Source: Clostridiaceae bacterium (lineage in GTDB: Bacteria > Cyanobacteriota > Vampirovibrionia > Gastranaerophilales > Gastranaerophilaceae). Taken from it: 64,000 nucleotides of DNA. Below the pieces are notes generated by a model, which had not been told where the DNA came from, ran no database searches, and saw only the letters and a program-made list of their open reading frames with translations. Every line of letters begins with the position of its first letter. Positions within the stretch are counted from its first letter, which is position 1. Positions 1-53,590 of this stretch are shown here, piece after piece. The stretch is from contig JALCDS010000005.1 in NCBI GenBank assembly GCA_022641775.1, forward strand, positions 22,299 through 86,298, in the 5' to 3' direction. A program made the position numbers and the translations under genes.

Positions 1-593
1 AGGTAGTTTGATGAATTGTTAACTGAAACTTTTTTACTCAAAACCTTTGTATAACGCATAGCCTTTGGCAATGTTTGAGAAAAAAAGTCTTCTTTATAAT
101 TATATTTTTCTAATTTAGTATTTTTAACAACATTTTTTTCCACAGTTGTCGCAACACCTTCAAATTTTTTATGAGAAACCCTTATAGGACTGAATTTAGG
201 AGCTTTTTTAAACACAACATGCACAGGATTCAACATGTCTTCAATAAAATGAAGAGCATAACCCAAATACATATCACGCTTTTCATAATTTTTATTTTTG
301 TTTTCCTTTAACATTTTTTGCGTGTACAATTTTGCTAAAGCGTAAGCATCAGGAGGTTCTGTAGATAAGTTATCAATATCCGCGAAATGCCCATTTATAT
401 AGGACTTTATATACTTTCTTGAGTAATCCGGCTCAACACAACTGTAATCAAGAATTGTTTTATTAAATCTCAATCTTTCAGGCATAGTTCTATTTATACG
501 TTTTACAATAGTCCTCGTTATAAGTCTATGAGTCTGATGTCTCCAACCAAAATTCACATTGTTTTCATAATTTTGTATTTTTTGAACAACCAT
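1..593 (-). CDS. Zn-dependent phospholipase C family protein (C-terminus lies beyond window edge)
   Basis: Not in the ORF track because it is open at the edge. Hand translation from ATG 593..591, behind AAGGAG, gives MVVQKIQNYENNVNFGWRHQTHRLITRTIV... with no stop down to position 1. W17, HRLI, EPDY, GHFAD, LGYALHFIEDMLNPVH and HKKFE line up with the Zn ligands W1/H14/D55/H69/H118/D122/H128/H142/E146 of B. cereus PC-PLC and the alpha-toxin N-domain. Confidence 0.7.
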   Translation of the reverse strand, partial: MVVQKIQNYENNVNFGWRHQTHRLITRTIVKRINRTMPERLRFNKTILDYSCVEPDYSRKYIKSYINGHFADIDNLSTEPPDAYALAKLYTQKMLKENKNKNYEKRDMYLGYALHFIEDMLNPVHVVFKKAPKFSPIRVSHKKFEGVATTVEKNVVKNTKLEKYNYKEDFFSQTLPKAMRYTKVLSKKVSVNNSSNY

Positions 594-760
594 TACTACT
601 CCTTACAAAATCATTATAACTTTTTTACTTATTTTCTTAAATATTTAAAGGTTCTTAACATTATGTTATTGTAAACTTTCTTTCATAAGTTGTCATTTAT
701 TACAAAAAGTGTAGAATAAACATTAATTGCAATAGTTGAGGCATCAGATTGGGGGATTTT

Positions 761-1048
761 ATGAAAGTTGGTGCAATAAACAGATCTACTGGATTGACAA
801 AATCGATAATAAAATCAGTCGAACACAAAATTTCTGTAGAACCGGCATTTTTTGAACGCGGAACCGACATAATTAAATTATCCAACGGCAAAACTCTTGA
901 AATAAAAACAGATTATTTTTTAAATAAAAAACAAACAAAAATATTTACACTTAAAGATGAACAGGGCTCAACTGAAAAAACTCTAAAAAGATTTTTTATT
1001 GACGGCAAACGATTAAATCTACCAAAGTACATAAATGAGGTTATTTAA
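761..1048 (+). CDS. hypothetical small protein (95 aa)
   Basis: ORF track 749..1048. ATG at 761 lies behind GGGGGA. No recognisable domain. Confidence 0.45.
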   Translation: MKVGAINRSTGLTKSIIKSVEHKISVEPAFFERGTDIIKLSNGKTLEIKTDYFLNKKQTKIFTLKDEQGSTEKTLKRFFIDGKRLNLPKYINEVI

Positions 1049-1053
1049 AAAAT

Positions 1054-1629
1054 ATGACTAAAAACATTCAAGGTTATGCCATATTAGAAAATTTGCTCAA
1101 CGGTAATAAAGATTTTGTAAACGGAGAATTATCTATACTTAATCATCAAGTTGATACGTTAAAACAGCTCAAAAATCAGCAACATCCAAATGCAATGATT
1201 TTTACCTGTTCTGATTCAAGAATATCTCCTGAAATAATTTTTAATTGCGGATTAGGGGAATTATTTACAATAAAAACAGCAGGCTTGGCTATAGACAACA
1301 ACGTCATAGAAACTATTGAGTATGGAATTGAAAAATTAAAAATAGAACTTTTAATTTTATTGGGTCACGACAACTGCGGCGCAATAGAAACGGCAAAAAA
1401 ATATTATCCTCAAAAAGGACATTTTGATTCTCTAGTCAATGGCATATATACGGTTATGACATCAGCTACAATATCGACAGATGACCTTGCGAAAACATAT
1501 ACAAAAAGTCTTGAAAATACCCTCATAAGCAAATCTGACATTATTAAAGCCGCTATTAAAGACAAAAATTTGTTACTTATAAAGGCACATCTGCATCACG
1601 ATACGGGCATTGTCGAGATATTAGAATAG
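1054..1629 (+). CDS. beta-class carbonic anhydrase
   Basis: The CSDSR motif and GHDNCGA motif are the Cys/His/Cys zinc site of beta-CA. Length 191 aa. Confidence 0.85.
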   Translation: MTKNIQGYAILENLLNGNKDFVNGELSILNHQVDTLKQLKNQQHPNAMIFTCSDSRISPEIIFNCGLGELFTIKTAGLAIDNNVIETIEYGIEKLKIELLILLGHDNCGAIETAKKYYPQKGHFDSLVNGIYTVMTSATISTDDLAKTYTKSLENTLISKSDIIKAAIKDKNLLLIKAHLHHDTGIVEILE

Positions 1630-1650
1630 ATATATCAAAAATTTTTTTCT

Positions 1651-2500: not shown

Positions 2501-2515
2501 AATTGACCTCCTTAT

Positions 2516-3509: not shown

Positions 3510-5042
3510 TTACCCTAAAATTTCTTTTAAATCTTCCTCAGGTGTTTTGATTGGTGCTATTTTAAACTTGTCAACCAAAATTTGCAATACATTTGGCGAA
3601 ACAAATGCAGGCAAAGTCGGTCCAAGTTTTATATTTTCTATTCCTAAATATAAAAGTGTCAACAAAATACAAACAGCTTTCTGCTCATACCAAGATAGAA
3701 CAAGTGACAATGGAAGTTCATTCACAGAACAATTAAATGCTTTAGATAGTTCCACTGCAACCTTTATAGCTGAATACGCATCATTACATTGTCCCATATC
3801 AAGGATTCTCGGTATCCCATTGATATCACCTAAATCTAAATCATTAAATCTGAATTTTCCACAAGCAAGCGTCAAGATTAAAGTATCAGAAGGTGTTTGT
3901 TTTACAAATTCTGTATAGTAGTTTCTTCCAGGTTTTGCTCCGTCACAACCACCTACAAGGAAAATATGTTTCAAATCACCTGATTTTACAGAATTAATAA
4001 CTTTATCTGCAACGCTCATTACAGTATGATGTCCGAAACCTACCGTCAAAACATCACCACCGTTTATTCCTGTCATTTTTACATCTTTATCATATCCACC
4101 CAATTCCAACGCTTTATTGATAACAGGCGTAAAATCTTTGTCATTGCCTATATGTTTGCAATCAGGGAATTCGACAACAGACGTTGTGAACACTCTATCT
4201 TTGTAACTATCTTTTACTGGCATAATACAATTTGTTGTAAATAATATTGCTCCCGGTAAATTGTCAAATTCTTTTTGTTGGTTTTGCCAAGCTGTACCGA
4301 AATTCCCTTTAAGTTGAGGATATTTTTTCAATTCAGGATAAGCATGACAAGGTAACATTTCGCCATGTGTATAAATATTTATACCTTTACCTTTTGTTTG
4401 TTCTAAAAGTAAAGCTAAATCATGCAAATCATGACCTGTAACAACAATAAACGGACCTTTTTCAATATTTGTCGTAACTTTAGTCGGCACAGGGTTACCA
4501 TAAGTTTCAGTATTAGCCTTATCCAACAATTCCATACATTTTAAATTAATTTCACCTGTTTTCAAAACAAGTGGTAACAATTCTGATGTCGGTAAATCTT
4601 TTGAAATAGCTTGTAATGCTTCATAGAAAAATTTATCAACAGCTTCATCTTTATAACCTAAAATCCTTGCGTGGTGAGCGTAAGCCGCAATCCCTTTAAG
4701 CCCAAAAAGAATCAATGATTTTAAACTTCTTATATCTTCATCACAATCCCAAACAGATTGGATATTAAAATCAGGGTTACCTGCATTTTCTATCACATCA
4801 TCAACCATTTTTTGAATTGTTTCGCCGTCAAAATTAACATTCGTAATTGTTGTAAACAACCCGTCAATTAAAATTTTTGTATTTTTATCATTTACAGGTG
4901 CAACATTTGCAAGCTTTATCAATGAACTTGTTAATTTGTCTTGTAAATTTGCAATATCCGCAGTTTTTCCACACACCCCACCGAACGTACAACCTTGGCA
5001 CTTTGCAGTTTGTTCACATTGAAAGCAAAACATTTTATTCAT
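3510..5042 (-). CDS. hcp: hybrid cluster protein / hydroxylamine reductase
   Basis: N-terminal CFQCEQT...CxxGxCGK cluster motif. 510 aa, with full-length Hcp-like sequence. Confidence 0.93.
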   Translation of the reverse strand: MNKMFCFQCEQTAKCQGCTFGGVCGKTADIANLQDKLTSSLIKLANVAPVNDKNTKILIDGLFTTITNVNFDGETIQKMVDDVIENAGNPDFNIQSVWDCDEDIRSLKSLILFGLKGIAAYAHHARILGYKDEAVDKFFYEALQAISKDLPTSELLPLVLKTGEINLKCMELLDKANTETYGNPVPTKVTTNIEKGPFIVVTGHDLHDLALLLEQTKGKGINIYTHGEMLPCHAYPELKKYPQLKGNFGTAWQNQQKEFDNLPGAILFTTNCIMPVKDSYKDRVFTTSVVEFPDCKHIGNDKDFTPVINKALELGGYDKDVKMTGINGGDVLTVGFGHHTVMSVADKVINSVKSGDLKHIFLVGGCDGAKPGRNYYTEFVKQTPSDTLILTLACGKFRFNDLDLGDINGIPRILDMGQCNDAYSAIKVAVELSKAFNCSVNELPLSLVLSWYEQKAVCILLTLLYLGIENIKLGPTLPAFVSPNVLQILVDKFKIAPIKTPEEDLKEILG

Positions 5043-5066
5043 AATTTTATTCTCCTTTTTCTTTTC

Positions 5067-5095
5067 TTGACATTTTTAGTGTAACGTGTTATTCT
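5067..5095 (+). promoter_or_regulatory. sigma70-like promoter for the Crp/Fnr gene
   Basis: TTGACA (5067..5072), 17-nt spacer, TATTCT (5090..5095), about 45 nt upstream of ATG 5139. Confidence 0.4.
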
Positions 5096-5105
5096 ACAAA
5101 AATCC

Positions 5106-5119
5106 GTTGCAGTTGCAAC
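5106..5119. promoter_or_regulatory. 14-bp palindrome GTTGCAGTTGCAAC, candidate Crp/Fnr(HcpR)-type operator
   Basis: Perfect inverted repeat GTTGCA/TGCAAC in the hcp to regulator intergenic region. Confidence 0.35.
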
Positions 5120-5138
5120 AAAAATTGAAGGGCATTTT

Positions 5139-5771
5139 ATGGATATATTTTACGGGATATCAGATAGTGATAAATCAGCCATGTTGAACTGTTTGAGAGC
5201 AGTTAAAAAGACTTATCTGAAAGATGAAATTGTTTTTGATGAAACAAAAGCCTTGACAGCTGTAGGTTATTTAGAAAAAGGACATTTAAGACTTTTAAAA
5301 GATGATTATGAAGGGAATAAATTGATTATTTCTGATATAAAAGAAGGTGAAACATTCGGCGAAGCTATAGTTTCACAAGATGTGCCTCAAAATCAAATAT
5401 ATGGACAAGTAACAGAAGATTCTGAAATCCTTTTTATGGATTTTTCGAGAATTCTGTCAATGTGTCAAAATACATGTCCTTTTCATAAAAAATTGATAGA
5501 AAATTTAATCAAAAATATCACAAGTAAAAACGTTATTCTGCAACAACGGATTGAACTTTTATCTAAAAAGACATTACGAGAGAGAATTTTGAGTTTCTTA
5601 TATGAAATCAAGAATAAACAAAAATCAATTATATTTGAAATTCCTTATTCAAGAGAACAAATGGCAGAATTTTTGGGAGCTGACAGAAGCGCATTATCTC
5701 GAGAACTTTCTAAAATGAAAGCTGAAAACTTAATTGATTACCATAAAAATTCATTCAAAATCTTAAAATAA
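5139..5771 (+). CDS. Crp/Fnr family transcriptional regulator (HcpR-like by position)
   Basis: cNMP-binding-like N-domain (GExFGE). C-terminal HTH: REQMAEFLGADRSALSRELSKM. Divergent from hcp. Confidence 0.8.
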   Translation: MDIFYGISDSDKSAMLNCLRAVKKTYLKDEIVFDETKALTAVGYLEKGHLRLLKDDYEGNKLIISDIKEGETFGEAIVSQDVPQNQIYGQVTEDSEILFMDFSRILSMCQNTCPFHKKLIENLIKNITSKNVILQQRIELLSKKTLRERILSFLYEIKNKQKSIIFEIPYSREQMAEFLGADRSALSRELSKMKAENLIDYHKNSFKILK

Positions 5772-5773
5772 AT

Positions 5774-6049
5774 TTATTCACAAATTTTCAAATTTATGTT
5801 TTGCAAAAGTTGTTTTGCCAATTTATTTTCAAAAGTGTACCAAATCAAATTACCTTCCCTACAACCTTTTATAATCCCAGCATTCTTTAATATATTAATA
5901 TGTTGCGAGACCAATGATTGCGAAACATGCAACCTTTCAACCATTGTATTCACATTACATTTTCCTTTATGTAAAAGCCCACATGCTATATTGAGTCTAA
6001 TTGGGTGCGATAACGCTTTAAATATTTTTGCATATTCTTCTGCTTGCAT
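5774..6049 (-). CDS. ArsR/SmtB family transcriptional repressor
   Basis: FKALSHPIRLNI...LVSQHINILKNAGII winged-HTH signature. Cys residues lie at the alpha3 position (GKCNV) and at the C-terminus (KICE). Confidence 0.8.
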   Translation of the reverse strand: MQAEEYAKIFKALSHPIRLNIACGLLHKGKCNVNTMVERLHVSQSLVSQHINILKNAGIIKGCREGNLIWYTFENKLAKQLLQNINLKICE

Positions 6050-6064
6050 AATTTGAGTCTCCTC

Positions 6065-6104
6065 TTGACAATATTAGAATATTATAATATTCTAATATTG
6101 TCAA
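6065..6104. promoter_or_regulatory. perfect 40-bp palindrome holding two overlapping divergent promoters / operator
   Basis: TTGACAATATTAGAATATTA|TAATATTCTAATATTGTCAA. On each strand it reads TTGACA-N17-TATTCT. Confidence 0.55.
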
Positions 6105-6111
6105 GTAGTTA

Positions 6112-8496: not shown

Positions 8497-8764
8497 TTCC
8501 GTTCAAACAGTTGAAAAAGTCTTTCATACAATCACAATTTAAACTATAATACACATTTAATCCGTCTTTCCTGTCTTTTATCAGGTGGACGGATTTTAAT
8601 TTTACAAGTCCTTTTGAAATATGCGATTGTTCGTAATTTAATTCCTTAACTATTTCGCAAACACATTTTTCACCATTCAATAAAAGATCAATAATTTGTA
8701 ATCGCATAGGATTTGCCAAGGCTTTGAATATTTCAGTTTTTTTATCATAAAAATTCTTATCCAT
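8489..8764 (-). CDS. arsR: arsenic-responsive ArsR repressor
   Basis: [28 protein letters not shown]...GEKCVCEI, the canonical CVC As(III) site. The ATG at 8764 is chosen over the longer track ORF. Confidence 0.85.
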
Positions 8765-8773
8765 CTTACCCCC

Positions 8774-8844
8774 TTGACAATATGCCAAATATGTCATATA
8801 GTAATATATATGCCAATTATGGCATATGGCTATTATTTTGTCAA
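8774..8844. promoter_or_regulatory. divergent arsR/acr3 promoters with repeated ATGCCAA(A/T)T half-sites
   Basis: Plus strand: TTGACA 8774..8779, N17, TATAGT 8797..8802. Minus strand: TTGACA 8844..8839, N17, CATAAT 8821..8816. Palindrome ATGCCAATTATGGCAT at 8810..8825. Confidence 0.5.
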
Positions 8845-8854
8845 GGAGGGGTAC

Positions 8855-14902: not shown

Positions 14903-16585
14903 ATGCAAGTAGATTTAATCAGAAATATGTCTTATAATAATTATGCAGACAAAAGACAAAATAGAAGTGTTTCATTTATGGGAAAAAATAAAGATCTATC
15001 GAAAAACGAACAAGAATTTTTAAGATATAAAATACAATTAGCAAGAAAAGATCACGAAATTTCAACCAAATCGGGGATTGCTCAATGGGATTATTATATA
15101 AATTCCAGTAATGAGAATATGAAAACTTATGAAAAAGAGTACGATAAAAGTTTGAAGTTTTGGAGTGATAAAAAGACTTACAAAAAGCTGCTTCAATTTG
15201 AGAAAAAAGGTATTTCTGATAAAACTCTAAAACGCACAATTACAGATTTAATCCATGATTTTGAAGAAAATGTAAAAGATACTCAATTACAAAAAAAATT
15301 ACAAACTATGCAAAATAAAATTGAACAAACCGTCAATTCTTATAAGGGCAATTTTGATGGCAAGGAATATCCAAATGCAGAATTAACGACAATTTTAGAA
15401 ACCGAAAAGAATCCGGGAATAAGAGAAAAAGCTTACAATGCAAGGTATGTTACAATCGGTGAAAAAATAGAAAAAGATTTGATTAATTTAGTAAAAGAGC
15501 GTAACAAATTTGCAAAGAAAAAAGGTTATGACAACTACTTCAGCTATGTATTGAAAGAAAGCTACAAGGTTGATGAAAAACAATTATTCAACACCTTAGA
15601 TATTATTGCTAAAAAAACTCGTCCTATCTACAAACAGATACAAGAAGAAGGAGATATAAAACTTGCAAAAGTATTTAACATCAGTCCAAAAGAACTTCAG
15701 CCATGGCATTACGGACTTTTGCTAGAAGGTAATCCTAAAAAAGAAGCTAACAAATATCTCAAAGATAACAAGATGATGGAAAATACCGTCTATGATATGT
15801 ATAAGGCTATGGGTTGGAATGTCAAAGAAATGCCGATAATGCTTGATTTGTATCCTAAAACAAACAAAAATCAACACGGTTTCTGTTTTGATTTGAACCC
15901 AAATAAAGATGCAAGGATTTTGGCTAATCTAAAAAATGACACTAATAGTGTAGAAACTTTGCTACATGAAATGGGACATTCTGTTTACGCACTTTCTTAT
16001 TCTCCAAAACTTCAATATTTTGACAAAAATACACATTATGCAACTACAGAAGCGGTGGCAATGATGATGGAAACTGTACCGGCCAGAGAAGGTTTCTATT
16101 CTAAAGAACTGAATTTACCAACAAAACTTTCAAAGAAATTAGAAACATACAGACTTAAAACTTCCATAAAATTCGTAAATTATTATGAAGTATTAATAAA
16201 TTTTGAAAAAATGATGTATGAAAATCCTGATCAAGATTTATCAAAATTATGGTTTGAACTGAGTCACAAATACGAATTGAGACCTATGCCGAAAAAGATT
16301 GTAAATGAATGGGCTAACATTCCACACCTATTAGTTTGTCCGGGATATTTACAAAATTATTTCAGAGCTGAAATTATGCAAGACCAAATGTATAATGCAG
16401 CAAGCAAAAAACTCGGCAAACTCACCGAAAATTCTAAAACAAGAAAATTTTTCGAGAAAAATCTGTTCAAATACGGCAAATCATTACCGGAAGACGAACT
16501 ACTTGAAAAATTCACCGGTTCTAAATTGAATGTAGAAGCTTTATGCAAAAGCTATGAAAAACTTTTAAAAGTAATAAAAAAATAA
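14903..16585 (+). CDS. M3-like zinc metallopeptidase (HEMGH) with N/Q-rich VSFMG leader
   Basis: LLHEMGHSVY...TTEAVAMMMETV has HExxH-(about 25 aa)-E spacing as in M3 oligoendopeptidases. ATG 14903 lies behind AGAGGA. No Sec signal peptide. Confidence 0.55.
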   Translation: MQVDLIRNMSYNNYADKRQNRSVSFMGKNKDLSKNEQEFLRYKIQLARKDHEISTKSGIAQWDYYINSSNENMKTYEKEYDKSLKFWSDKKTYKKLLQFEKKGISDKTLKRTITDLIHDFEENVKDTQLQKKLQTMQNKIEQTVNSYKGNFDGKEYPNAELTTILETEKNPGIREKAYNARYVTIGEKIEKDLINLVKERNKFAKKKGYDNYFSYVLKESYKVDEKQLFNTLDIIAKKTRPIYKQIQEEGDIKLAKVFNISPKELQPWHYGLLLEGNPKKEANKYLKDNKMMENTVYDMYKAMGWNVKEMPIMLDLYPKTNKNQHGFCFDLNPNKDARILANLKNDTNSVETLLHEMGHSVYALSYSPKLQYFDKNTHYATTEAVAMMMETVPAREGFYSKELNLPTKLSKKLETYRLKTSIKFVNYYEVLINFEKMMYENPDQDLSKLWFELSHKYELRPMPKKIVNEWANIPHLLVCPGYLQNYFRAEIMQDQMYNAASKKLGKLTENSKTRKFFEKNLFKYGKSLPEDELLEKFTGSKLNVEALCKSYEKLLKVIKK

Positions 16586-21067: not shown

Positions 21068-22756
21068 CTAAGCCGCTGTACTTGAAGGAGTCTTTTTATG
21101 TTCTAATCTGTATTTATCAGCAAATTTGCCGATTTTATGAGTCAAATAACCTGTGATAATACCAAAGGCCATTGCTTTGCCACCGGACAAAAGACTCGTT
21201 GTACAATAAACAATTGTACCAAGAGATGTAAGTGCCGGAATTCCGTACTTCAAGGATATAGATTTACGTTTATCATTATCTTTTGCTCTAATCAAAAAAT
21301 AACTCAATGGAACGACACCAAATAAAATATCTGAAACTTCAAGTGGTGCAGAACCCATAGCCAAATCTCTCATCTTGTCAAAGAATTGGGCACATTCAAG
21401 ATTTATTGACTTATGCAAAGACTTGTTGAATGAACAAATTTTGTTTCGCATTTTTATATAATCTTTTCTTGGTAAAATCTCCTTATAAATAGTCAAAATC
21501 TCTTGGATTTCACCCTTTTTGGTATCTTCAAGCAACGCTGACGTATCACCTAATTTTGTAATAATTCTATCCGGAACATCAGAGTCATAGAGCCCTGAAT
21601 TTTCACTTATTCTATCTTGTAAAGCTTTGAAGTCATCTTTCAAGGTATCAGCCAATTTTGCTCTGTTTGTAACTTCATTATTACCGCTGAGATTTGCATA
21701 TTCTTTTAAATGCGCTTTTAAAATAGTAATTTGTTCAATAGATTTTGAGTCTTTTGGATTTATTGCATTTTCAACTTCAGACAAAGAAGATTTAATTCCG
21801 GTTGTTATATCAGTAATATCATTAGTAATTCCGCGTCTGAATTGTGAAACTTCATTTATTAATTTTGTTCTATCTTCAACTACAAGGTTGTGTGCCAAGA
21901 AAGACTGGTACATCTCTCTTGATGTAAAGTTTCGTCTAAATCCTTTAGGATTGAGGCTTGCATCCCAAAAACGAACATCCAAATCTGACATAACATTATG
22001 CATTCTATTATACCTGTCATCTAAAGCTGAACCTTTAAAATTAGATTTATAACCGGTTTTTACGCTCGCCAAATGACGTTCAATTTCTTTTACCCATTCT
22101 TCCTTTGTTTTAGTAACTCCATTTATCGTAAATTGTTGTGATGGATTTGTGATATTTAATTTTGAATTTATTTTTTCTGTATATTTCAACATTTTGTTTA
22201 AAGTTTTGTCAGATTTCTTGTATGAAGAAAGAACCGTTCTTCTGCTAATTTTTTCAAAGAAGTTTGTAATCCCTTCATAAACTTTCCTAGCACCACGGCC
22301 AAATGCATTTTTAGGCGTACTGTTAGAAAAAGCACACATGGATTTTTTCATTGAAATAATTTTCAATGAATGGAAGTTATTCAATGATTCTGCCTTCTCC
22401 AAGAAATGGTTAACCCCACTCAAGATAACTCGATAAAACTGTTTCGCCTGTTCTGATTTTTCTCTGGCACCTTTAGTAGACATTTTTTGATTCAAATGTC
22501 CCCTCAATTTTTCCAACCACTTGTAAGCACCCTTATGCAATCCACTTACAAAGCCTAAAACAACAAGCACTGTACCGGCAACAGTTGAGGCTATAATTAA
22601 AGCTTTTTTACTCTTCTTTTTTCCCTTCTTATCTTCCGACAGCGTGAATTCATCGCCGCTTTGAGGCGATGTAAAAAGAAACTGATTTTTATTATTGGAA
22701 AAATCAGCATAAGCAGATTTACTGTTTACTTTTGCTATCGGAACTTGATTAATCAT
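21068..22756 (-). CDS. hypothetical membrane-anchored protein (562 aa)
   Basis: RBS AAGGGAAA. N/Q/S-rich N-terminus, K-rich stretch, one TM segment (ALIIASTVAGTVLVVLGFV), a long helical region, and two C-terminal TM segments. Confidence 0.6.
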   Translation of the reverse strand: MINQVPIAKVNSKSAYADFSNNKNQFLFTSPQSGDEFTLSEDKKGKKKSKKALIIASTVAGTVLVVLGFVSGLHKGAYKWLEKLRGHLNQKMSTKGAREKSEQAKQFYRVILSGVNHFLEKAESLNNFHSLKIISMKKSMCAFSNSTPKNAFGRGARKVYEGITNFFEKISRRTVLSSYKKSDKTLNKMLKYTEKINSKLNITNPSQQFTINGVTKTKEEWVKEIERHLASVKTGYKSNFKGSALDDRYNRMHNVMSDLDVRFWDASLNPKGFRRNFTSREMYQSFLAHNLVVEDRTKLINEVSQFRRGITNDITDITTGIKSSLSEVENAINPKDSKSIEQITILKAHLKEYANLSGNNEVTNRAKLADTLKDDFKALQDRISENSGLYDSDVPDRIITKLGDTSALLEDTKKGEIQEILTIYKEILPRKDYIKMRNKICSFNKSLHKSINLECAQFFDKMRDLAMGSAPLEVSDILFGVVPLSYFLIRAKDNDKRKSISLKYGIPALTSLGTIVYCTTSLLSGGKAMAFGIITGYLTHKIGKFADKYRLEHKKTPSSTAA

Positions 22757-36447: not shown

Positions 36448-36633
36448 TTATTTAATTTTTCCGAATAAACTTTTTAAAAATTCTTTTACACTTTTAAAAA
36501 ACGACTTGTGCGGAGTAATATAATGGCTATTCAAGTCTGTTATTTGGTTTCTTCGGTATGAATCGTTTTTAAAGACCTTAGTAGATCTGTTATAATCGCC
36601 TTGAAATGAAATTTTATTAACTGTCAGACTCAT
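36448..36633 (-). CDS. small basic protein with ISFQG leader and cationic amphipathic C-terminus
   Basis: Strong RBS AAGGAG 7 nt upstream of the ATG. Has its own terminator. 61 aa, ending in SFFKSVKEFLKSLFGKIK. Confidence 0.5.
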   Translation of the reverse strand: MSLTVNKISFQGDYNRSTKVFKNDSYRRNQITDLNSHYITPHKSFFKSVKEFLKSLFGKIK

Positions 36634-39867: not shown

Positions 39868-41190
39868 ATGATAAAACCAATTTCATCAACAGATTTTAAC
39901 ACAAGTTTTGCTAACGGAATACAACAAAATACAACCTTAAATCATACGGCACCGTTGCCTAATGATACTGTTACGATTCAAAATGCAAATCAAAAAGATT
40001 CAACTAAAAAGAAAAAAAGAAATAAAATTATTGCCGTTACGGCAGGAATACTTGCAACAGCAGGATTGGTTGCTACAGCAATATTTTCAAGAGGACGTAG
40101 CTTAAAACCGGCGAAGTTTGAAGCAAATATAGATTTTACACGTGCAACTTCAATGGAAGATGCAGTTGCATATGCTAAGAAAAATTTTGGAATCAAAAAT
40201 TTTGAACTCGGCGAAGATTTGGACTTAGCAAACTGGGTAAATGAAGGGCTTACAAACATTAATAATCGTTTTAAAGGTAAAGCCCATATGCCGAAAAAAG
40301 TATTCTTAGATGATGCTTATTTTGCAGAGAATCCACATGCTGCAGCATATTGTAATATGTCAAAAGATTTTATCGCCATAAATAAGAAATTAATTGATAC
40401 CGCAGATAACAGATTGGGTGACTATATAAACCAAGGCGAAAAAGCATATGAAAAATATAAAAATACTCAAGCTGGAAGCCTTTATAGTTTTGCATTAGGA
40501 ACGCTCCATCTTTCAAAAAATAATAATGGTGAATGGCTTCAACATTCAGTAAAATTTTTGGATGAAAGTGTTCAAAATGAAATTTTTAGTATGCTTGTAA
40601 AACGAACAGAAAAGCCAAATGAATTCACTAAATTTGATGCTTTACATACAAATCAACTTATTGACGATTTAATAGGTTCTGCAAGAACAATACAGGAAAA
40701 GCCATTAAGTTGTATTGAACAAATGTTTAAAAAACCTACTGTCAGGGAATTTTTGGAAAAACAACCTTCCCATAAAACTATTGAAGAATATAGACAGCTT
40801 AAACCCGAAAACCAACTACAAGCTTGTGTTGATTTGATGGAACTGTTAAATAAGAACAATATTCATGTATATTCAAAAGCTACATGTCGTGCAAACAGTC
40901 AATTCGACTTTTTATATCATGAAATGGGACACTTGTTACATCGTAAAAATACTTCATTATGGGACGATATAAAAGGTGTATTGAGTAAAAAAACAGAAAA
41001 AGAATTTCTTGCAAATGAAGAATATCAAAAAATTGCAAGTCAAATTTCATGGTATGCAAAAAAAGACCCTAAAGAATACGTCGCAGAATGTTTCAATGCA
41101 ATAGTTTCAGGTAGAAAATTATCTGACAAACAAATGGAATTATACAGAAAATTCCGTGGACCTGAAATTGATCAGTTTATAAATAATTAG
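39868..41190 (+). CDS. membrane-anchored HExxH zinc metallopeptidase-like protein
   Basis: ATG 39868 behind AGGAAA. N/Q/T-rich N-terminus, KKKKRNK, and one TM segment. YHEMGHLLH ... PKEYVAECFNA resembles the HExxH...E(Y/F)FAE layout of M34 (anthrax LF / PPEP-like) zincins. Confidence 0.55.
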   Translation: MIKPISSTDFNTSFANGIQQNTTLNHTAPLPNDTVTIQNANQKDSTKKKKRNKIIAVTAGILATAGLVATAIFSRGRSLKPAKFEANIDFTRATSMEDAVAYAKKNFGIKNFELGEDLDLANWVNEGLTNINNRFKGKAHMPKKVFLDDAYFAENPHAAAYCNMSKDFIAINKKLIDTADNRLGDYINQGEKAYEKYKNTQAGSLYSFALGTLHLSKNNNGEWLQHSVKFLDESVQNEIFSMLVKRTEKPNEFTKFDALHTNQLIDDLIGSARTIQEKPLSCIEQMFKKPTVREFLEKQPSHKTIEEYRQLKPENQLQACVDLMELLNKNNIHVYSKATCRANSQFDFLYHEMGHLLHRKNTSLWDDIKGVLSKKTEKEFLANEEYQKIASQISWYAKKDPKEYVAECFNAIVSGRKLSDKQMELYRKFRGPEIDQFINN

Positions 41191-42864: not shown

Positions 42865-42889
42865 TTTTAGATTTTGAGGTAATTAAAAA

Positions 42890-43123: not shown

Positions 43124-43558
43124 TTAAACATCAATGTCTCTTGCGCTACAGCATTTTGATACAATCCAAGAAATTACACCTACACCGAAAATTGAACCCG
43201 GCAATGTCCATACTGTTTGAGTATGTTTTATTTGTTGAACTAATTCTTTATCTTTTTTTGGATCTAAACCATATTTTTCTGCAACTGTATTATTTGAACG
43301 ACATGCATAATATAAGGTTGAGAAAACTCCTCCAAATATTGTCCATCCTGCTGCTTTATTTCTTGCAGATTTAATTAAATCTTGTTTTTCTTCCGTTGTC
43401 ATATTTGCGGATCTTCCGCATTCATTATCAGTTCTTTCAAAAGCATCACAAGAGTCACAATGTTTGCTGTGACCTGTAAATGGAGTACTGCGTCTTACAC
43501 TTGATAATTGTGATATATTTGGCATTGAATTAACGTTTGAAACCATTAAATTTGACAT
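43124..43558 (-). CDS. hypothetical membrane protein with TPFTG leader
   Basis: 144 aa. S/N-rich N-terminus, CDSCD motif, and two predicted TM segments. Confidence 0.5.
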   Translation of the reverse strand: MSNLMVSNVNSMPNISQLSSVRRSTPFTGHSKHCDSCDAFERTDNECGRSANMTTEEKQDLIKSARNKAAGWTIFGGVFSTLYYACRSNNTVAEKYGLDPKKDKELVQQIKHTQTVWTLPGSIFGVGVISWIVSKCCSARDIDV

Positions 43559-46700: not shown

Positions 46701-47246
46701 TTTATGAACTTCATGAGATGTTCTAAATCCATCAAAGAATTGCAAGAAAGGAACTTTAGCTTTGTAAGTAGAAAGGTGAGCAACAAGTGCCATATCCATT
46801 TCTTCTTGAACAGAGTTAGCTGCTAACATTGCATATCCTGTATTTCTGCAACCCATAACGTCTGAATGATCGCCGAAGATTGCTAATGATTGAGCTGCAA
46901 TTGCACGAGCTGCAACGTGAATAACGTGAGGAAGCATTTCCCCTGCTACTTTATGCATTACAGGAATCATTAATAATAAACCTTGAGAGGCTGTGTAAGT
47001 TGATGTCAAACAACCTGCAGCAAGAGAACCATGAACAGCACCTGCTGCACCTGCTTCTGATTGCATTTCGGCAACTGAAACTTCTTTGCCCCAAATATTT
47101 TGTTTGTGTTGTGAAGCCCATTCATCAATCCACTCACCCATTGTAGATGATGGAGTGATCGGGTAAATTGCGGATACTTCGCTCAATGCATACGCAACGT
47201 GCGCTGCGGCGTAGTTTCCGTCAACTGTTATTGTTTTTTTTGGCAT
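43716..47246 (-). CDS. nifJ: pyruvate:ferredoxin (flavodoxin) oxidoreductase
   Basis: 1176-aa single-chain PFOR. Two CxxCxxCxxxCP motifs and the TPP motif GGDGWANDIGYGG. Confidence 0.95.
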   Translation of the reverse strand: MPKKTITVDGNYAAAHVAYALSEVSAIYPITPSSTMGEWIDEWASQHKQNIWGKEVSVAEMQSEAGAAGAVHGSLAAGCLTSTYTASQGLLLMIPVMHKVAGEMLPHVIHVAARAIAAQSLAIFGDHSDVMGCRNTGYAMLAANSVQEEMDMALVAHLSTYKAKVPFLQFFDGFRTSHEVHKIEEISYEDIASLVEPKYIEEFKKRALRPEAPVSKVGAQNTDVYFQGRETVNKYYNAVPDIVQEYMDKVAKVTGRQYHPFDYVGAPDATDVIVAMGSGCETIEETIEYLNETRGTKYGLVKVRLYRPFDVERFKATLPSSVKRIAVLDRTKEPGSIGEPLYLDVVAALENKGLTIIGGRYGLSSKEFTPSMVLAVYKHLANNGFHGFTVGINDDVTNKSLDYSEHIVTEPKGTTNCMFWGLGSDGTVGANKNSIKIIGQYTEKDAQAYFAYDSKKSFGVTVSHLRFGDKPIKSTYLITAPDFVSCSAHAYIGRYDMLKGIKEGGTFLLNSPYSKGEAFSHLTRAMQKTIIEKKIKFYNVNAEELIKQQPGLRGKGANTVMMVAYFKVSGIIPFEQAYEGMKAMTTKTFKKKGDDVVNMNLALIDAAINACEEVVVPSSLDGVDCAPEVKMIPDDADEFAKKIIEPSMRQKGDDIPVSAMSCDGVIPTGTACLEKRGIAPRVPHWNSEFCIQCGICASACPHAAIRTKLVEEKDLKNAPASFKTVPAKPALADEKFKVQVYCEDCTGCGVCLDQCPMKQEGKKALTWSSIEEEESLGEKENAKFFDELPDNVMGKNTTKTIKGAMLRKPLFEFSGACAGCGETPYVKLVSQLFGENAIVANATGCSSIYSGTFPTIPYTKGKDGRGPAWANSLFEDNAEFGFGMRLAVDQNRATLKTFVEKVLNNEKTPSDLKDALNAAMANWDNSKTDEAVKAQDAAKAALAKYADCGCPDMAKVRELEDYFTDKSVWIIGGDGWANDIGYGGIDHVLAQGKNVNVLVLDTEVYSNTGGQASKSTPTGAVAKFATGGKKTYKKNMGLMSMSYGYVYVASVALGADRGQTLKAFQEAESYDGPSIIFAYAPCIAHGIDMGKTQTEQKRAVDAGYFPLYRYNPANETPFSWDVKAVNGSYQDFIRSEGRYKSLMKTNPAAAEELYAQAEKDAQARMNVYKAVGELVK

Positions 47247-47456: not shown

Positions 47457-48707
47457 ATGAATTTAACAATTACCCCGAAACTTAACGCTATCAATAACAG
47501 AAATATTTATAATTACAATCAGCAATCAACTATGCCCAACAATTTTAATACCCTGAATAAGGATACTGTTTCTTTTTCTGGGAAGGAAAGAATTTTAAAA
47601 TACTCAAAATATACAATGCAAGATGTAACACTTTCACAATATGAAAGAAACAAACCGCTTTATACCGCATTGGCAAACAGACTGATGGATACTTTGGAAA
47701 GTATTGCAAATGAATTAAAATCATCCGGTGTTATTTTTGATAGAGATTACTGTGAAAAAAATGCGATTAAAAAATCAGATTCTTTTATTTCAAAATTCAT
47801 CAGAAGCGGAGAAACACCTCAAGACAGAGTTCGTTCAACATTATTTTTACAAAATATATATGATTTATCAATAATGAACGATAAAATACTTCCCGCTTTA
47901 AAAAAACGTGGTTACGAAGTTGCGATTATCCCTGACAAAACCGCAGGAAAAAGAGTTCTTTCAACAAAAGCAGATTTTGATGTAAGATTAACCGGGCTTT
48001 CCGATAAAGATAAAAAATCTCTTGCTCCCGCATTGAGGAATGCTGCATCTTTCAAACCTCAATCTTCAGGATATGAAGATATTCAATTCAGAATTGTTGA
48101 TACGCTGGCAGGAAGCAAAGGAAAACAAATTCCTATAGAAGTTATTACTGTTTTCGGAAAGAAAACTTCTGAGGCTAAACATAATGAGTCTTATTATGTT
48201 TATGATATAAAAAAACTTTTCAAGCTGTTCCATCTTTCATCAGTAAAAGATCCGGAAATACACTCTCCGGCAAAACGTATTCAAACCAATATCAGTACAA
48301 TATCACAACAATTAACTGATAATATTTCAAAGCCATTATTTTTCAATGCTAAAAACTTGGATTTTTATAATGATAAAACTCAATTACCTGTTGGCATAAG
48401 CAAAGCCACTTCACAGGTTCTAATAGGTCTGGCTGAAGGAATAAAAAACAAAATTCCTTTACATTATAAAGAAGAATTTGCTAAAGTTAATTCTGAAAAA
48501 TATCAACCCGCAATCGAAAAACTAATTAAAAATTCTGATGAATATAAAACAAGAGAAGATAAAACAATCTACGTTGACGATATTAAAGAAATGCGTAAAA
48601 CTCTTGTTAATCAATTAAAGCAAGAAAGACGTGAAGATTTGCAAATTATTAATGAAGCAATTATGCGTTTAAAAGAAACGATTAACAAGTTTGGTAAAAA
48701 AAATTAG
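47457..48707 (+). CDS. hypothetical protein with VSFSG leader and divergent RelA/SpoT-like (RSH) nucleotidyltransferase-like core
   Basis: AIKKSDSFISKFIRSG, SGYEDIQFRIV and IEVITVF...AKHNESYYVY align by eye with the small alarmone synthetase blocks RVKSFESIVNKLMRKG, NGYRSLHLII and EIQIRT...EHKIYYK. Several catalytic positions are substituted. Confidence 0.35.
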   Translation: MNLTITPKLNAINNRNIYNYNQQSTMPNNFNTLNKDTVSFSGKERILKYSKYTMQDVTLSQYERNKPLYTALANRLMDTLESIANELKSSGVIFDRDYCEKNAIKKSDSFISKFIRSGETPQDRVRSTLFLQNIYDLSIMNDKILPALKKRGYEVAIIPDKTAGKRVLSTKADFDVRLTGLSDKDKKSLAPALRNAASFKPQSSGYEDIQFRIVDTLAGSKGKQIPIEVITVFGKKTSEAKHNESYYVYDIKKLFKLFHLSSVKDPEIHSPAKRIQTNISTISQQLTDNISKPLFFNAKNLDFYNDKTQLPVGISKATSQVLIGLAEGIKNKIPLHYKEEFAKVNSEKYQPAIEKLIKNSDEYKTREDKTIYVDDIKEMRKTLVNQLKQERREDLQIINEAIMRLKETINKFGKKN

Positions 48708-51094: not shown

Positions 51095-51130
51095 TGTTAA
51101 TAATATGATAATAAGATAGGTTCATCTTAC

Positions 51131-51174
51131 TTACTGCCAGTTAGTCACTAAATTTACTGACTACAATGCAGTAA
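51131..51174. promoter_or_regulatory. nested inverted repeat upstream of XRE gene (candidate operator)
   Basis: TTACTGC...TAGTCA-ctaaatttac-TGACTA...GCAGTAA. Confidence 0.3.
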
Positions 51175-51183
51175 ACTACAAAA

Positions 51184-51399
51184 ATGGATACAAAAGACTT
51201 TTATATAAAGCTTTCATCTCGCATAAAATTTTTGAGAGAGAATGCACATTTAACACAAGAACAACTTGCAGAAAAAGCTGACTTAAGTTTAGACTTTTTA
51301 GGGAAGTTAGAAATAAATTATAGAAAACCGAGTTTAAGAACTATAGTCAAATTGGCAAATGCACTTAAAATTGAGCCTTTTGAAATTTTAAAATTTTAA
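51184..51399 (+). CDS. XRE-family helix-turn-helix regulator (71 aa)
   Basis: LRENAHLTQEQLAEKADLSLDFLGKLE HTH_3 pattern. Confidence 0.8.
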   Translation: MDTKDFYIKLSSRIKFLRENAHLTQEQLAEKADLSLDFLGKLEINYRKPSLRTIVKLANALKIEPFEILKF

Positions 51400-51667
51400 A
51401 TAAAAAGTTTAAATTTTAAGTATTTATTTTATTAATAATAAAGTTTATTGCAGTTTTGTAAATTTATTGTTATATTTGTAGTAATAAACTTGCATAAATT
51501 GTTAAAATTAAGTATAATAAATACACTTAATCTTTAAAAATCTATTTACATTTATCAGTATTGTTAAAATTTTTAAAGAACCCGAGTCAAAAAGGCAATT
51601 ATTTGTTGTCCAAATTTTTTAAGTACATGTGTAGTATTTACAGTTATGAAAAGAATAAAGTAGGGAA

Positions 51668-53590
51668 ATGACGATACAACCAATCCAAACGGCACTGAAT
51701 CAACGACAAAATACAAAACAGGGACATCCTAGTTTTACAGGATTTAACCCTGTAATTTCGCTTATGGATTCAATAGAAAGAGGCGGTTATATTGCATCTT
51801 TCGTATCACAAGATTGTGTTGGGATGGTTGCACCACGTATTTATGAAGGTGCGAATCGTAACAAGGACAAAACCGGTAAATACAATTGGGCTTTTGCAAG
51901 AAGAGAAGCTTTAAGAGAATTATTAAGCGGACCTAGCATGTTTGTAATTCCATTGGCATTATTTGGCGCAATGAACAAAAAAGGGTGGACTGCAAACAAA
52001 GTTCCTGTTGACAGAATCAACGTTTTAGGCGAAAAATTTGCACGTTATGCAGAAGATAACAAAGATTTAATCAAATCTGATTCTGCAGCAGCTAAAAAAG
52101 GTTTTTATAATGAAGTATTCAGAGATTTATTAACAAAAACTACTGAACAAAAAGTCAGCGAAACCGATATAGAAAAATTAGCACAAGATTATACAGACAG
52201 ATATATTCAAATAGAGAATTCAAAATCAAAAGGCTTTATCAAAAAGCTTATGGGTAAAGAAGTAAAAGGTTCTTCTGAAGACTTGTTACAAGAATTGGCT
52301 GATGATTTTATGACATTGAAAAAACAAAATTTGTCTCCGTCAAACAATTTGTCTGTAGCCTCAATTTCAGAAGAAGCAAACGACTCCAAAGCTACCGGCG
52401 GATTCAAATCTATGTTGGGCAGTCTTTCAGATTTCACAAATGATGCTATGAGATCTACTAAAAAGGCTCTTGAACATTCAACAGAATTGAATATAGCTGA
52501 CTATGCAAGATCTTTTGCAAAACGCCGTATGGGTTCCAGAATACTTTCAAATGCAGGAATATTCGGTGCAGTTGTATTATTTATGACACAAATCCCTAAA
52601 CTTTATAATATGGGATTAAAAGGCAATCCTGGCTTGGATGGTTTAGATACCCCGGAAGGTCAAAAGAAAGCTCAAGGGAAAAACCAACCAAACTTCACAG
52701 GAAAAGGTTCTGTACTTGAAAAAACTGCAGATATCGTTACTAAAAAGAGTTGGTTAAAACAATTGTCAGATAAGTTTGAATTCAATGGAGCTTCAATGAC
52801 ACCTACACAATGTTTAACATTGTTATTCGGGTTCTGCTTACCTCCTAGATTGATGCATGCTAACGACAAACACGACAGAAAAGAAATTTACGTTCGTGAT
52901 GTTTCAAGTTTCGTTGCAATCTTGTTTGCTGCAAAGGGATTAGCAAGAGGTTTTTCAGACATAATGGCAAAAGCTTCCGGTCTTGCATTAAACATCAAAC
53001 CTGATAATTTTAACAAATCACCATTCCATAAAATATACAGCTACGCAACTTCAGGTGATGGAGTTCATGTATTACAAACAGGTGAAATCGTTTCAAAATA
53101 CAGCCACATTGATAAATTCAAAGGTGGAATAAACGGATTCTTCTCATTCTTAAAAGAAAATGGCGGAAACGTTAGAAAAGCCCTTTCTTTAGACAAAACA
53201 GTAAAAGAAAATGCCGAAAAAATAGTTGGTAAATCTATAAAAGATGCCTCAATTGAAGAAATTGAATATGCTTTCAAAAATAACAAAAATACTGAAGCGT
53301 TAGAAAATATCTACAAGGTATTCAAAGATGCAAATAATACATACGTAAGACGTGCAAAAACAATGAACAGTACCTTCGGATTTTTATCAACACTCGTAAT
53401 TGTTCCGGCATTCATGATTTGGTTAGCTAAATTCTGTGAAAAGATGACAAAAAATGATATAGCTGCTGAAAAAGCTCAAAATGAACAAGATCAAAACGCA
53501 ATTTCAAAAGCTGATAAAGATATGGCTGACAAACAAACAAGAACCTTAATGACAAAACAACCGACTATGGAAGGGTTCTTAGCAAAATAA
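51668..53590 (+). CDS. hypothetical polytopic membrane protein with PSFTG leader and an internal PNFTG copy
   Basis: 640 aa. Q/N-rich N-terminus and 4 or more TM segments. The motif occurs again at aa 341-345 (52688..52702). Confidence 0.6.
   Translation: MTIQPIQTALNQRQNTKQGHPSFTGFNPVISLMDSIERGGYIASFVSQDCVGMVAPRIYEGANRNKDKTGKYNWAFARREALRELLSGPSMFVIPLALFGAMNKKGWTANKVPVDRINVLGEKFARYAEDNKDLIKSDSAAAKKGFYNEVFRDLLTKTTEQKVSETDIEKLAQDYTDRYIQIENSKSKGFIKKLMGKEVKGSSEDLLQELADDFMTLKKQNLSPSNNLSVASISEEANDSKATGGFKSMLGSLSDFTNDAMRSTKKALEHSTELNIADYARSFAKRRMGSRILSNAGIFGAVVLFMTQIPKLYNMGLKGNPGLDGLDTPEGQKKAQGKNQPNFTGKGSVLEKTADIVTKKSWLKQLSDKFEFNGASMTPTQCLTLLFGFCLPPRLMHANDKHDRKEIYVRDVSSFVAILFAAKGLARGFSDIMAKASGLALNIKPDNFNKSPFHKIYSYATSGDGVHVLQTGEIVSKYSHIDKFKGGINGFFSFLKENGGNVRKALSLDKTVKENAEKIVGKSIKDASIEEIEYAFKNNKNTEALENIYKVFKDANNTYVRRAKTMNSTFGFLSTLVIVPAFMIWLAKFCEKMTKNDIAAEKAQNEQDQNAISKADKDMADKQTRTLMTKQPTMEGFLAK

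Follow-up and report, generated by a model that had tools for sequence, protein, structure and literature searches.

A bipartite N-terminal tag on unrelated proteins of Gastranaerophilales and related Melainabacteria, possibly related to a flagellar-type export signal

Why would a phospholipase, a peptidase, a nucleotidyltransferase-like protein, and several proteins of other kinds, encoded on both strands and in different operons of a single bacterial contig, begin with a similar polar N-terminus? The question is raised by a stretch of 64,000 nucleotides (hereafter, the window; contig JALCDS010000005.1 of assembly GCA_022641775.1, positions 22,299 to 86,298 of the forward strand) that was deposited under the name Clostridiaceae bacterium and is placed among the Gastranaerophilaceae in the GTDB lineage. 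The contig is 359 kb long, and proteins on it bear the locus tags LKG27_02760 and LKG27_02775. The genome is AT-rich (G+C 32%), and the G+C of the window ranges from 30 to 37%. An initial annotation of this DNA proposed that seven open reading frames (ORFs) share a leader that lacks a hydrophobic core, ends in a short motif containing Phe and Gly, is cleaved after the Gly, and is recognised either by a dedicated protease or exporter or by a route similar to the type III secretion system (T3SS) of flagella. We found that these leaders contain a real bipartite element, the tag, which is present lineage-wide and is known so far only from Gastranaerophilales and related Melainabacteria. The annotation was right about a distinct shared leader, and a T3SS-like route is the best current explanation for it, while general cleavage after the Gly and the membership of a lytic transglycosylase with an SLT domain are unsupported.

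The ORFs that bear on this question, together with the PFOR gene around which related genomes were compared, are the following.

3..593, minus strand: zinc-dependent phospholipase C (PLC), its 3′ end off the window; variant leader MVVQKIQNYENNVNFG at 546-593, abutting W17
14903..16585, plus strand: M3/M2-like zinc peptidase; leader MQVDLIRNMSYNNYADKRQNRSVSFMG at 14903-14983, motif VSFMG at 14969-14983
21068..22756, minus strand: 562-aa membrane protein, weak candidate; start MINQVPIAKVNSKS, leader region 22655-22756
36448..36633, minus strand: 61-aa ORF; minimal 12-aa leader MSLTVNKISFQG at 36598-36633, motif ISFQG at 36598-36612
39868..41190, plus strand: zincin (HEMGH), weak divergent candidate; MIKPISSTDFNTSFANG...NDTVTIQN at 39868-39984, then a Lys-rich stretch and a transmembrane (TM) segment
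41177..41890, minus strand: SLT-domain lytic transglycosylase (Pfam SLT, 2.8e-33); VNFG at 41690-41701, rejected as a carrier
43124..43558, minus strand: 144-aa ORF directly downstream of PFOR; leader MSNLMVSNVNSMPNISQLSSVRRSTPFTG at 43472-43558, motif TPFTG at 43472-43486
43716-47246, minus strand: PFOR gene
47457..48707, plus strand: RelA/SpoT-type nucleotidyltransferase-like (RSH-like) ORF; leader MNLTITPKLNAINN...LNKDTVSFSG at 47457-47582, motif VSFSG at 47568-47582
51668..53590, plus strand: 640-aa membrane protein, function unassigned; leader MTIQPIQTALNQRQNTKQGHPSFTG at 51668-51742, motifs PSFTG at 51728-51742 and PNFTG at 52688-52702

All seven proposed motifs translate as the initial annotation had read them. 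Shine-Dalgarno-like sites place the starts of the M3 peptidase, the RSH-like ORF, and the zincin at 14903, 47457, and 39868, respectively, which makes the pattern M-x-[IVL]-x-x-[IVL] truly N-terminal. For the M3 peptidase, an AGAGGA site precedes 14903 and none precedes 14873, so the true start is M11 of the long ORF, and for the 61-aa ORF, an AAAGGAG site lies upstream. Overall, M-x-[IVL]-x-x-[IVL/T] is found at a Shine-Dalgarno-supported start in all five strong carriers of the window (the M3 peptidase, the 61-aa, 144-aa, and 640-aa ORFs, and the RSH-like ORF) and in 18 further families. The reported lack of a hydrophobic core also holds, as the maximal 10-aa hydropathy does not exceed 1.2 over the first 60 aa of the candidates, versus 2.3-3.6 for the Sec-type proteins of the window (M23, OppA-like, MlaD, and a 750-aa outer membrane-like protein), which have ordinary signal or anchor sequences. 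Within the first 70 aa of the window ORFs, strict motif hits show only a modest excess, with 6 observed versus 1.95 expected. Given that this excess is small and that the pattern was set post hoc from the window itself, the question had to be settled in related species.

The PFOR gene of the window has 87-89% identical counterparts in 80 species-level genomes, nearly all of which are labelled Candidatus Gastranaerophilales or Melainabacteria, and the loci around these genes (L001-L080, about 1.5 Mb) formed our comparative set. They were complemented by metagenome loci retrieved with Melainabacteria FliI as the query (L081-L101), and 868 ORFs from flagellar loci of other lineages, AT-rich ones included, served as a control. 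A two-part pattern, consisting of the hydrophobic start followed within 60 residues by [VITP][STN]F.[GAS], was found in 62 of 1332 ORFs of the related loci, compared with 4.3 for shuffled N-termini and none of 592 internal windows. When ORFs were counted by family across the 80 species, the signature was present in 24 of 657 families, versus 3.7 ± 1.9 after shuffling and 0 of 217 in internal windows. Around 6 of these 24 families are false positives by eye, leaving some 18 that are convincing; the false matches to the pattern include dTDP-glucose dehydratase, a pilin-like protein, and an ABC transporter. A position-specific scoring matrix (PSSM) built from 29 carrier sites only, for which the 99th background percentile is 9.2 in the 868 control ORFs, placed 6.1% of N-termini, compared with 0.7% of internal windows, at or above that percentile. 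Furthermore, the signature is found in 3.9% of this lineage's ORFs versus 0.46% of the control ORFs (Fisher p=4e-8), and patterns in which Y or L replaces F, or in which the motif is reversed, showed no N-terminal excess. The enrichment over shuffled N-termini, which had been suggested as a check on the leader, is therefore clear, the two-part signature standing well above both the shuffled and the internal background.

These results bear directly on whether the tag might be the product of chance or of the composition of an AT-rich genome, whose N-termini are rich in N, K, I, S, and F, with mis-called starts adding to the effect. The low G+C, the small post hoc excess in the window, the spurious part of the pattern matches, and the fact that M-x-[IVL]-x-x-[IVL] alone is just 1.7 times commoner at starts than at internal Met all speak for such an origin. 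However, it is hardly conceivable that composition could produce the signature in 24 families when shuffled N-termini of the same composition yield so few and internal windows none, when the Y, L, and reversed-motif controls are flat, when AT-rich loci of other lineages do not show it, and when D-T-V-S-F is invariant in about 120 homologues with scrambled flanks; we consider this explanation ruled out by the shuffles, the internal windows, the altered motifs, and the AT-rich loci elsewhere.

The tag opens with M-x-[IVL]-x-x-[IVL], its small hydrophobic residues lying at positions 3 and 6 and a P-x-F frequently coming next, and ends with a short strand-like element, [D/x]-[T/S/x]-[V/I/P]-[S/N]-F-x-[G/A/S]. 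The two are separated by a disordered spacer of 0 to about 45 residues in which Gln, Ser, Asn, Pro, and Thr are abundant and Glu, Asp, and Leu scarce. Compared with other N-termini, the leaders are enriched in Q (2.3x), S (1.9x), N (1.8x), and P (1.6x) and depleted in E (0.27x), D (0.46x), and L (0.49x), which is the usual composition bias of T3SS N-terminal signals. The minimal form comprises around 10 residues (MNISKISFTG and MNISTISFQG in other species, MQISAISPNFQG, and the MSLTVNKISFQG of the 61-aa ORF, which has the same form), and the longer forms add spacer between the elements, so that the distance from Met to Phe varies from 10 to 53 residues, being at least 19 in 14 of 21 leaders and 10-14 in the other 7. 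Around the Phe, the residues found in 20 families are as follows.

Position -2 from Phe: V 7, P 6, I 5, T 2
Position -1 from Phe: S 13, N 6, P 1
Position +1 from Phe: K 7, T 4, Q 3, C 2, S 2, N 1
Position +2 from Phe: G 15, A 3, S 2

In the structural models, the tag is predicted to lie outside the folded domain of each carrier, and the possibility that the motif is a piece of a fold was discarded because AlphaFold2 leaves residues 1-49 of the RSH-like protein and residues 1-10 of a PLC homologue unstructured. An origin of "F-K/Q-G" at the RNA level, as a Shine-Dalgarno-like TTT AAA GG, was discarded on reasoning alone, since the residue at F+1 may be K, T, Q, C, S, or N and that at F+2 G, A, or S, and since both the reading frame and the Met-proximal element are kept across spacers of variable length.

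Conservation within families gives the clearest picture of the two elements. In the RSH-like family, around 120 homologues with identities down to 30% keep M-N-[IL]-x-[IL]-T-P-x-F and L-x-x-D-T-V-S-F, with M1, D36, V38, and F40 invariant and T37 and S39 conserved in at least 93%, while the spacer of 25-40 residues is hypervariable in both sequence and length (columns 15-50% conserved). AlphaFold2 assigned a pLDDT below 50 to residues 1-49 and of about 90 or more to residues 50-416, which suggests that the conserved elements are not part of the fold; the model, which is very confident overall (mean pLDDT 89.5), combines an alpha/beta core with long helices at the C-terminus. Neither Pfam nor NCBIfam has a match for the window protein, its model gave no fold match against the PDB with Foldseek at E<=1e-3, and the family sequence profile retrieved nothing useful from the PDB; the syntenic orthologue in L036, however, matches Pfam RelA_SpoT (8.5e-10). 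Across 5.8 billion proteins the family yielded 144 hits and seems limited to this lineage, and its location beside PFOR is maintained in about 25 species. For the 640-aa protein, which also lacks Pfam and NCBIfam matches, 686 homologues were found, and the family conserves M-[SV]-V-K-A-I-N..., an N/Q-rich spacer, and N-P-S-F-[QT]-G-x-F-N-P-V-V. Of the 120 homologues listed, 101 have an internal copy of the second element, [VTP]-[ASN]-F-x-G, around 340-390 residues in, within a Gly/Lys-rich loop, with the Gly kept in essentially all of the copies.

Returning to the window, the PSSM scores are 17.6 for the M3 peptidase, 16.5 for the 61-aa ORF, 14.7 for the 144-aa ORF, 18.0 for the RSH-like ORF, and 18.3 for the 640-aa ORF, and they fall below 6 for the PLC, the SLT protein, and the ORFs starting at 39868 and 22756. 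Thus, of the seven ORFs to which a shared leader had been ascribed, five are strong carriers and the PLC is retained as an F-G-W variant with no "x" between F and G, whereas the SLT protein is not a member. The two ORFs listed as weaker variants can be kept only as weak candidates. The zincin has seven Lys or Arg residues in the N-side flank of its TM segment, which would leave its N-terminus in the cytoplasm, and the 562-aa membrane protein has only the first element of the tag, with no clear F-x-G, followed by a TM segment with a Lys-rich N-side flank. As for the SLT protein, SGVNFG is not kept in its orthologues and there is no M-x-I-x-x-I start; what the orthologues do keep is MFSxxIQxLxN...QR and an invariant F54 in S-F-E/Q, which they have in common with distant homologues too. 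The argument that carriers must act outside the cytoplasm, in so far as it drew on this enzyme, therefore fails. The SLT protein shows neither a Sec signal nor the leader.

The proteins that carry the tag are diverse. Those with Pfam domains include the M3/M2-like peptidase of the window (Peptidase_M3 3.6e-18 and M2 8.4e-18; NCBIfam M3_not_pepF 1.5e-30, below its cut-off), a 930-aa two-unit M16 peptidase, the zinc-dependent PLC (Zn_dep_PLPC, PF00882), an alpha/beta hydrolase, a DHH phosphoesterase, a 657-aa protein with a GAPDH-like domain, the RelA_SpoT-matching RSH-like orthologue, and a protein with a C-terminal J-domain (DnaJ), although most carriers have no Pfam match. Most also lack a TM segment; where one is present, the N-side of the first segment is flanked by Lys-rich sequence, so that the tag would face the cytoplasm. 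Carriers diverge fast, with 30-55% identity where PFOR maintains 87-89%.

Having found the tag to be real, we asked whether it corresponds to any known signal. The view that it represents a second kind of N-terminus, separate from those with a Sec, lipoprotein, Tat, or pilin signal, is supported, as it is common to unrelated proteins and conserved by selection. A Sec or lipoprotein signal, with its hydrophobic h-region of about 7-15 residues, was discarded on the hydropathy difference described above (no more than 1.2 versus 2.3-3.6) and the lack of a lipobox, and a Tat signal, which calls for S/T-R-R-x-F-L-K and then an h-region, because RR occurs only in the 144-aa ORF (VRRSTPF) and an h-region in none. 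Type IV (class III) prepilins, whose leader reads G|F-T-L-I-E ahead of a hydrophobic stretch of some 20 aa, were discarded as well, since the small residue is followed here by polar residues (K, R, N, or S) with no hydrophobic segment, and the true pilin-like genes differ. Double-glycine leaders of peptidase-containing ABC transporters (PCAT) are similarly N-terminal, around 10-50 aa long, without a hydrophobic core, with a small end residue, and present on unrelated products. They have Gly at P2, Gly, Ala, or Ser at P1, and hydrophobic residues at -4, -7, and -12, whereas in all 20 tag families P2 is K, T, Q, C, S, or N and the hydrophobic residues are at -3 and -5. The tag further differs in having F at P3 and V, I, or P at P5, in cargo of up to 930 aa, in a terminal Gly that is poorly kept in the RSH-like family, and in the absence of any PCAT seen near the carriers. 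There may also be some resemblance to TonB boxes, chaperone-usher donor strands (G-x-V-x-F-x-G), the lambda-O ClpX tag, and the FGLK motifs of chloroplast proteins. No NCBIfam model matches the leader, and we found no described N-terminal motif or effector signal of Melainabacteria in the literature.

The tag works most like the signal of early flagellar T3SS substrates, yet its motif departs from the accepted definition, and for this reason we do not class it as a member. Early flagellar subunits have an N-terminal hydrophobic signal and a gate-recognition motif whose binding partner is FlhB's cytoplasmic domain (FlhB-C) (PMC8983047). In FlgD from Salmonella, for instance, 2-SIAV-5 and 36-FLTLL-40 work one after the other at FlhB-C and the export gate (PMC8983047). 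Similar to this dual export signal of rod and hook proteins (Evans 2013; Bryant 2022, PMC8983047), the tag is located at the extreme N-terminus, outside the fold and without a Sec-type core. Furthermore, it shares with FlgD the small hydrophobic residues in the first seven positions or so (2-SIAV-5 versus M-x-[IVL]-x-x-[IVL]), the polar disordered spacer, and the short Phe-centred element (36-FLTLL-40).

A connection with the rod is also suggested, above all by FlgC, among the rod-type proteins of this lineage that we examined (FlgB, FlgC, and FliE). The metagenome search with FliI retrieved Melainabacteria-type flgB-flgC-fliE-fliF-fliG-fliH-fliI operons in addition to operons of other lineages. 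At the expected gate-recognition position, FlgC from the Melainabacteria-type operons has KKDINFKAIY, KKQVSFKAIY, or RKEVSFQAVY (consensus [KR]K[DEQ][IV][NSV]F[KQE][AT][IV]Y), and FlgB has RKEVNFESQL. The carrier-only PSSM gives these FlgC proteins scores of 9.0-14.3, around or above the 99th percentile (9.2) and the best non-training hits among 220 ORFs, versus -3.2 to 3.1 for the rod proteins of other lineages, and one FlgB matches the two-part pattern. Unlike the rod and hook signals, the tag sits on non-flagellar enzymes and membrane proteins. It is conserved at the sequence level over dozens of unrelated families, which to our knowledge is not the case for T3SS cargo.

The machinery for such a route is present in the lineage. 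It had been noted that no processing machinery lies inside the window, and this is correct, yet fliF-fliG-fliH-fliI adjoins PFOR in some related species, where it is directly upstream of and divergent from that gene (L037, at 4888-9738, as well as L009, L011, L026, and L035). The position is the slot that the RSH-like carrier occupies in the window and in about 25 other species. No rod, flagellin, or pilin gene was picked up by a pattern search of the PFOR loci, in which tblastn later found FliI and flagellin; L002 has two flagellins, which start with MKISVNTN and MAITVNTN. Four Gastranaerophilales genomes inferred to be non-motile keep FlhA, FlhB, FliP, FliR, FliI, FlgB, FlgC, and FlgG, some of them also FliJ, FliE, or FlgF, and are without FlgD/E/K/L, FliC/D, FliM/N, and MotA/B (PMC4040986 Table S5). 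Obscuribacterales have no flagellar genes (PMC4040986). One of the four, Zag_111, is part of our set (L051), and its RSH-like protein has an intact leader. Flagellar apparatuses are also used for non-flagellar cargo, as with the YplA phospholipase of Yersinia or Cia and FlaC of Campylobacter, and the carriers too include a phospholipase and other hydrolases. We know of no shared sequence motif in the cargo of these systems or of those of Buchnera and Lysobacter; the tag differs from all of them in that its predicted cargo set would amount to a few percent of the proteome. The retention of flagellar export machinery without motility in Buchnera (PMC8109811) and in the flagellar T3SS remnant of Lysobacter enzymogenes (PMC7688988) is a precedent for the gene content of the non-motile Gastranaerophilales, in which gate, ATPase, and rod are kept without hook, filament, or motor.

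Taking these observations together, we tentatively propose that the tag is an export signal similar to that of early flagellar T3SS substrates. The Phe element would dock the unfolded N-terminus on the cytoplasmic domain of FlhB, in the manner of a gate-recognition motif, and the hydrophobic extreme N-terminus would next engage the FlhAB-FliPQR gate. In lineages without hook, FliK, filament, and motor, the established substrate-switch model leads us to expect an apparatus that stays in early-substrate mode. Locked in this state, it could export peptidases, phospholipase C, hydrolases, the RSH-like nucleotidyltransferase, and small or membrane proteins, adding up to a few percent of the proteome. 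Removal of the leader would not be needed and would be plausible just for particular cargo, such as the PLC. Thus, the flagellar T3SS-like route put forward in the initial annotation gains real, albeit circumstantial, support from the layout of the tag, the match with FlgC, and the retained gate genes, although the hydrophobic residue expected at F+4 is not generally present.

Several observations weigh against this proposal. In Salmonella the motif reads F-x-x-x-hydrophobic, but a hydrophobic residue stands at F+4 in just 7 of 20 carrier families and in 29 of 117 RSH-like proteins; what the carriers keep is [S/N] ahead of the Phe and a small residue two positions after it. The two signals have to be at least 19-30 residues apart in Salmonella (PMC8983047), whereas the spacer of the carriers may be zero, with the Phe 10-14 residues from Met in a third of the leaders (7/21). 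In some carriers with a TM segment, the Lys-rich flank would leave the tag in the cytoplasm. The F-motif recurs as a conserved internal copy in the 640-aa family, and some carriers have cytoplasm-type domains (RelA_SpoT, C-terminal DnaJ, and DHH). The PLC suggests cleavage, which is no feature of T3SS substrates, FlgB of the lineage fits the PSSM less well than FlgC, and the proposed link to FlhB is one of resemblance only. It is owing to the F+4 mismatch, the short leaders, the TM carriers, the internal copy, and the cytoplasm-type domains that we lean towards export only with some hesitation, the more so as cytoplasmic docking would fit the last three about as well.

Such docking would make the tag a short linear motif that is retained in the cytoplasm, a beta-strand-type docking or regulatory peptide for one common partner, with no export involved; a scaffold, a chaperone, a membrane platform, or a protease adaptor are candidates for this role. 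It would agree with conserved elements embedded in disordered sequence, with the strongly positive N-side flanks of the TM carriers, with the maintenance of the internal copy in the 640-aa family, with carrier domains of kinds usually met in the cytoplasm (RelA_SpoT, C-terminal J-domain, DHH, and GAPDH-like), and with the housekeeping-like synteny of the RSH-like carrier and PFOR in about 25 species. Nevertheless, a docking motif has little reason to be as strongly N-terminal as the tag (0/217 families in internal windows) or to conserve Met+2 and Met+5 at the extreme N-terminus, which is typical of export signals. Some carrier enzyme types are secreted elsewhere, namely the zinc-dependent PLC and probably the PqqL-type M16 protease, and the carriers evolve fast (30-55% identity versus 87-89% for PFOR). 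We therefore find this reading improbable, and slightly more so than the one that follows.

Also unlikely in our view is a cleavable leader for a dedicated exporter or leader peptidase apart from the flagellar apparatus, in which the small residue after F-x would be P1 and the mature chain would begin straight behind it, in the manner of double-glycine leaders with their peptidase-containing ABC exporters or of propeptides that a specific protease removes. Its strongest case is the PLC. In this family (18 homologues), a leader of the form M-L-V-x-G-[IV]...[ST]-F-G is directly followed by a near-invariant W-x-H-[SA]-T-H; F15, G16, W17, H19, T21, and H22 are nearly invariant, and the His, Asp, and Glu columns are invariant. 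The AlphaFold2 model of the homologue P0002 has residues 1-10 disordered and the first helix from residue 18, and Foldseek relates it with a probability of 1.0 to alpha-toxin, PC-PLC from B. cereus, and PlcB from Listeria (TM-score 0.57-0.66), these closest solved homologues being secreted proteins. The family profile aligns T21-H22 with T10-H11 of alpha-toxin, with no other such pairing. In alpha-toxin, PC-PLC, and PlcB, the mature chain begins with a Trp whose free amino group is a zinc ligand. Thus, the Trp directly after F-G, the disordered residues before it, the position of the first helix, and the alpha-toxin fold suggest, from sequence and models, that the leader of this one protein is processed. 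The situation would be similar to that of the PC-PLC and PlcB propeptides, which are removed to expose Trp1, except that in those enzymes a Sec signal peptide precedes the propeptide and the window PLC has none, and that a single carrier family is concerned.

Beyond the PLC, a dedicated exporter would agree with the small residue kept at F+2 (G 15, A 3, S 2 of 20 families) and with leaders of 10-14 aa, which suit a cleavage site better than a T3SS dual signal. A further point is that the 930-aa M16 carrier has a length and two-unit layout that would match those of PqqL from E. coli, a Sec-exported periplasmic protease. General cleavage after the Gly, as proposed at the outset, finds no support in the RSH-like family, where the Gly is kept in 54% of proteins versus 93-100% for the five residues D-T-V-S-F before it, which is odd for P1, or in the use of G, A, or S across families. 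P2 is never Gly, so that this is not a double-glycine leader, and no C39/ABC exporter, Prp-like protease, or other candidate was seen in the window or beside carriers in loci (1.5 Mb) that are partly annotated. Moreover, cleavage at the internal copy of the 640-aa family would mean a membrane protein cut in two. Prp-type cleavage, as in ribosomal protein L27, was considered separately and appears unlikely, as its register differs, with F at P3 and not P2; neither an L27 nor an L21 gene is present in the DNA covered.

If the tag does serve export, it could address a general secretion route of Melainabacteria that has not been recognised so far, either a converted flagellar gate or a new leader-dependent export or processing pathway, an idea that we advance with reserve. 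In the first version, the gate may have been converted in non-motile gut Gastranaerophilales to the export of a few percent of the proteome, and the signal may have co-evolved with the gate-recognition motif of the rod. In a more radical version, the pathway may be wholly new and leader-dependent, with a peptidase of its own. Gastranaerophilales are common in human and animal guts and uncultured, and their lineage-specific proteins are mostly unannotated; were the proposal true, the genome of an uncultured human-gut lineage could directly reveal its secretome. A tag on around 3-6% of ORFs would label dozens of unannotated proteins per genome, some of which, namely the phospholipase C and several peptidases, might target host cells or cells nearby. 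It has been a puzzle since 2014 why the non-motile members retain export gate, ATPase, and rod genes, and the tag offers one testable answer. Should the connection to FlhB hold, the tag would be a rare case of a T3SS-type signal with a strong sequence consensus, such signals being otherwise hard to predict; should it fail, the tag would still indicate an undescribed sorting or docking system.

Some further observations concern individual loci. The 144-aa carrier of the window gave no match in Pfam, and in many related species its slot downstream of PFOR is taken by another carrier family, which starts with MQISAISPNFQG. Between this carrier and a GatD-like gene, there is a tRNA-Gly(CCC) at 42793-42864, and the call of a 72-aa ORF at 42753-42971 is spurious for this reason. 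Loose leader-like polar N-termini, below threshold and without Pfam matches, are found in the window at 17371-17877 (MPKINTKASMSTFQQ...SNFSTAG), 749-1048 (MKVGAINRSTG), and 1651-2199 (MQKVDNFKS). In L071 (6372-8345), the 657-aa protein that starts with MNISKISFTG combines a GAPDH-like domain, a glycolytic-enzyme fold (TIGR01534 8.4e-63, below cut-off; Pfam Gp_dh_C 1.5e-29), with a long extension. In L016 (17591-18937 and 18954-20324) and L022 (19216-20586), tandem paralogues, each around 450 aa long, start with extended leaders (MRVQTITASNL...PISFSG and MNILPVSFNSFY...TISLSFQG) and have no match in Pfam, which points to local duplication of carrier genes. Finally, flagellated Melainabacteria-type contigs encode small membrane-anchored proteins of 120-142 aa (L082 15653-16015, L100 15671-16033, and L097 1141-1569) in which two F-motifs (MNNVSFCG... 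and ...TDTVNFRG) lie ahead of the TM segment.

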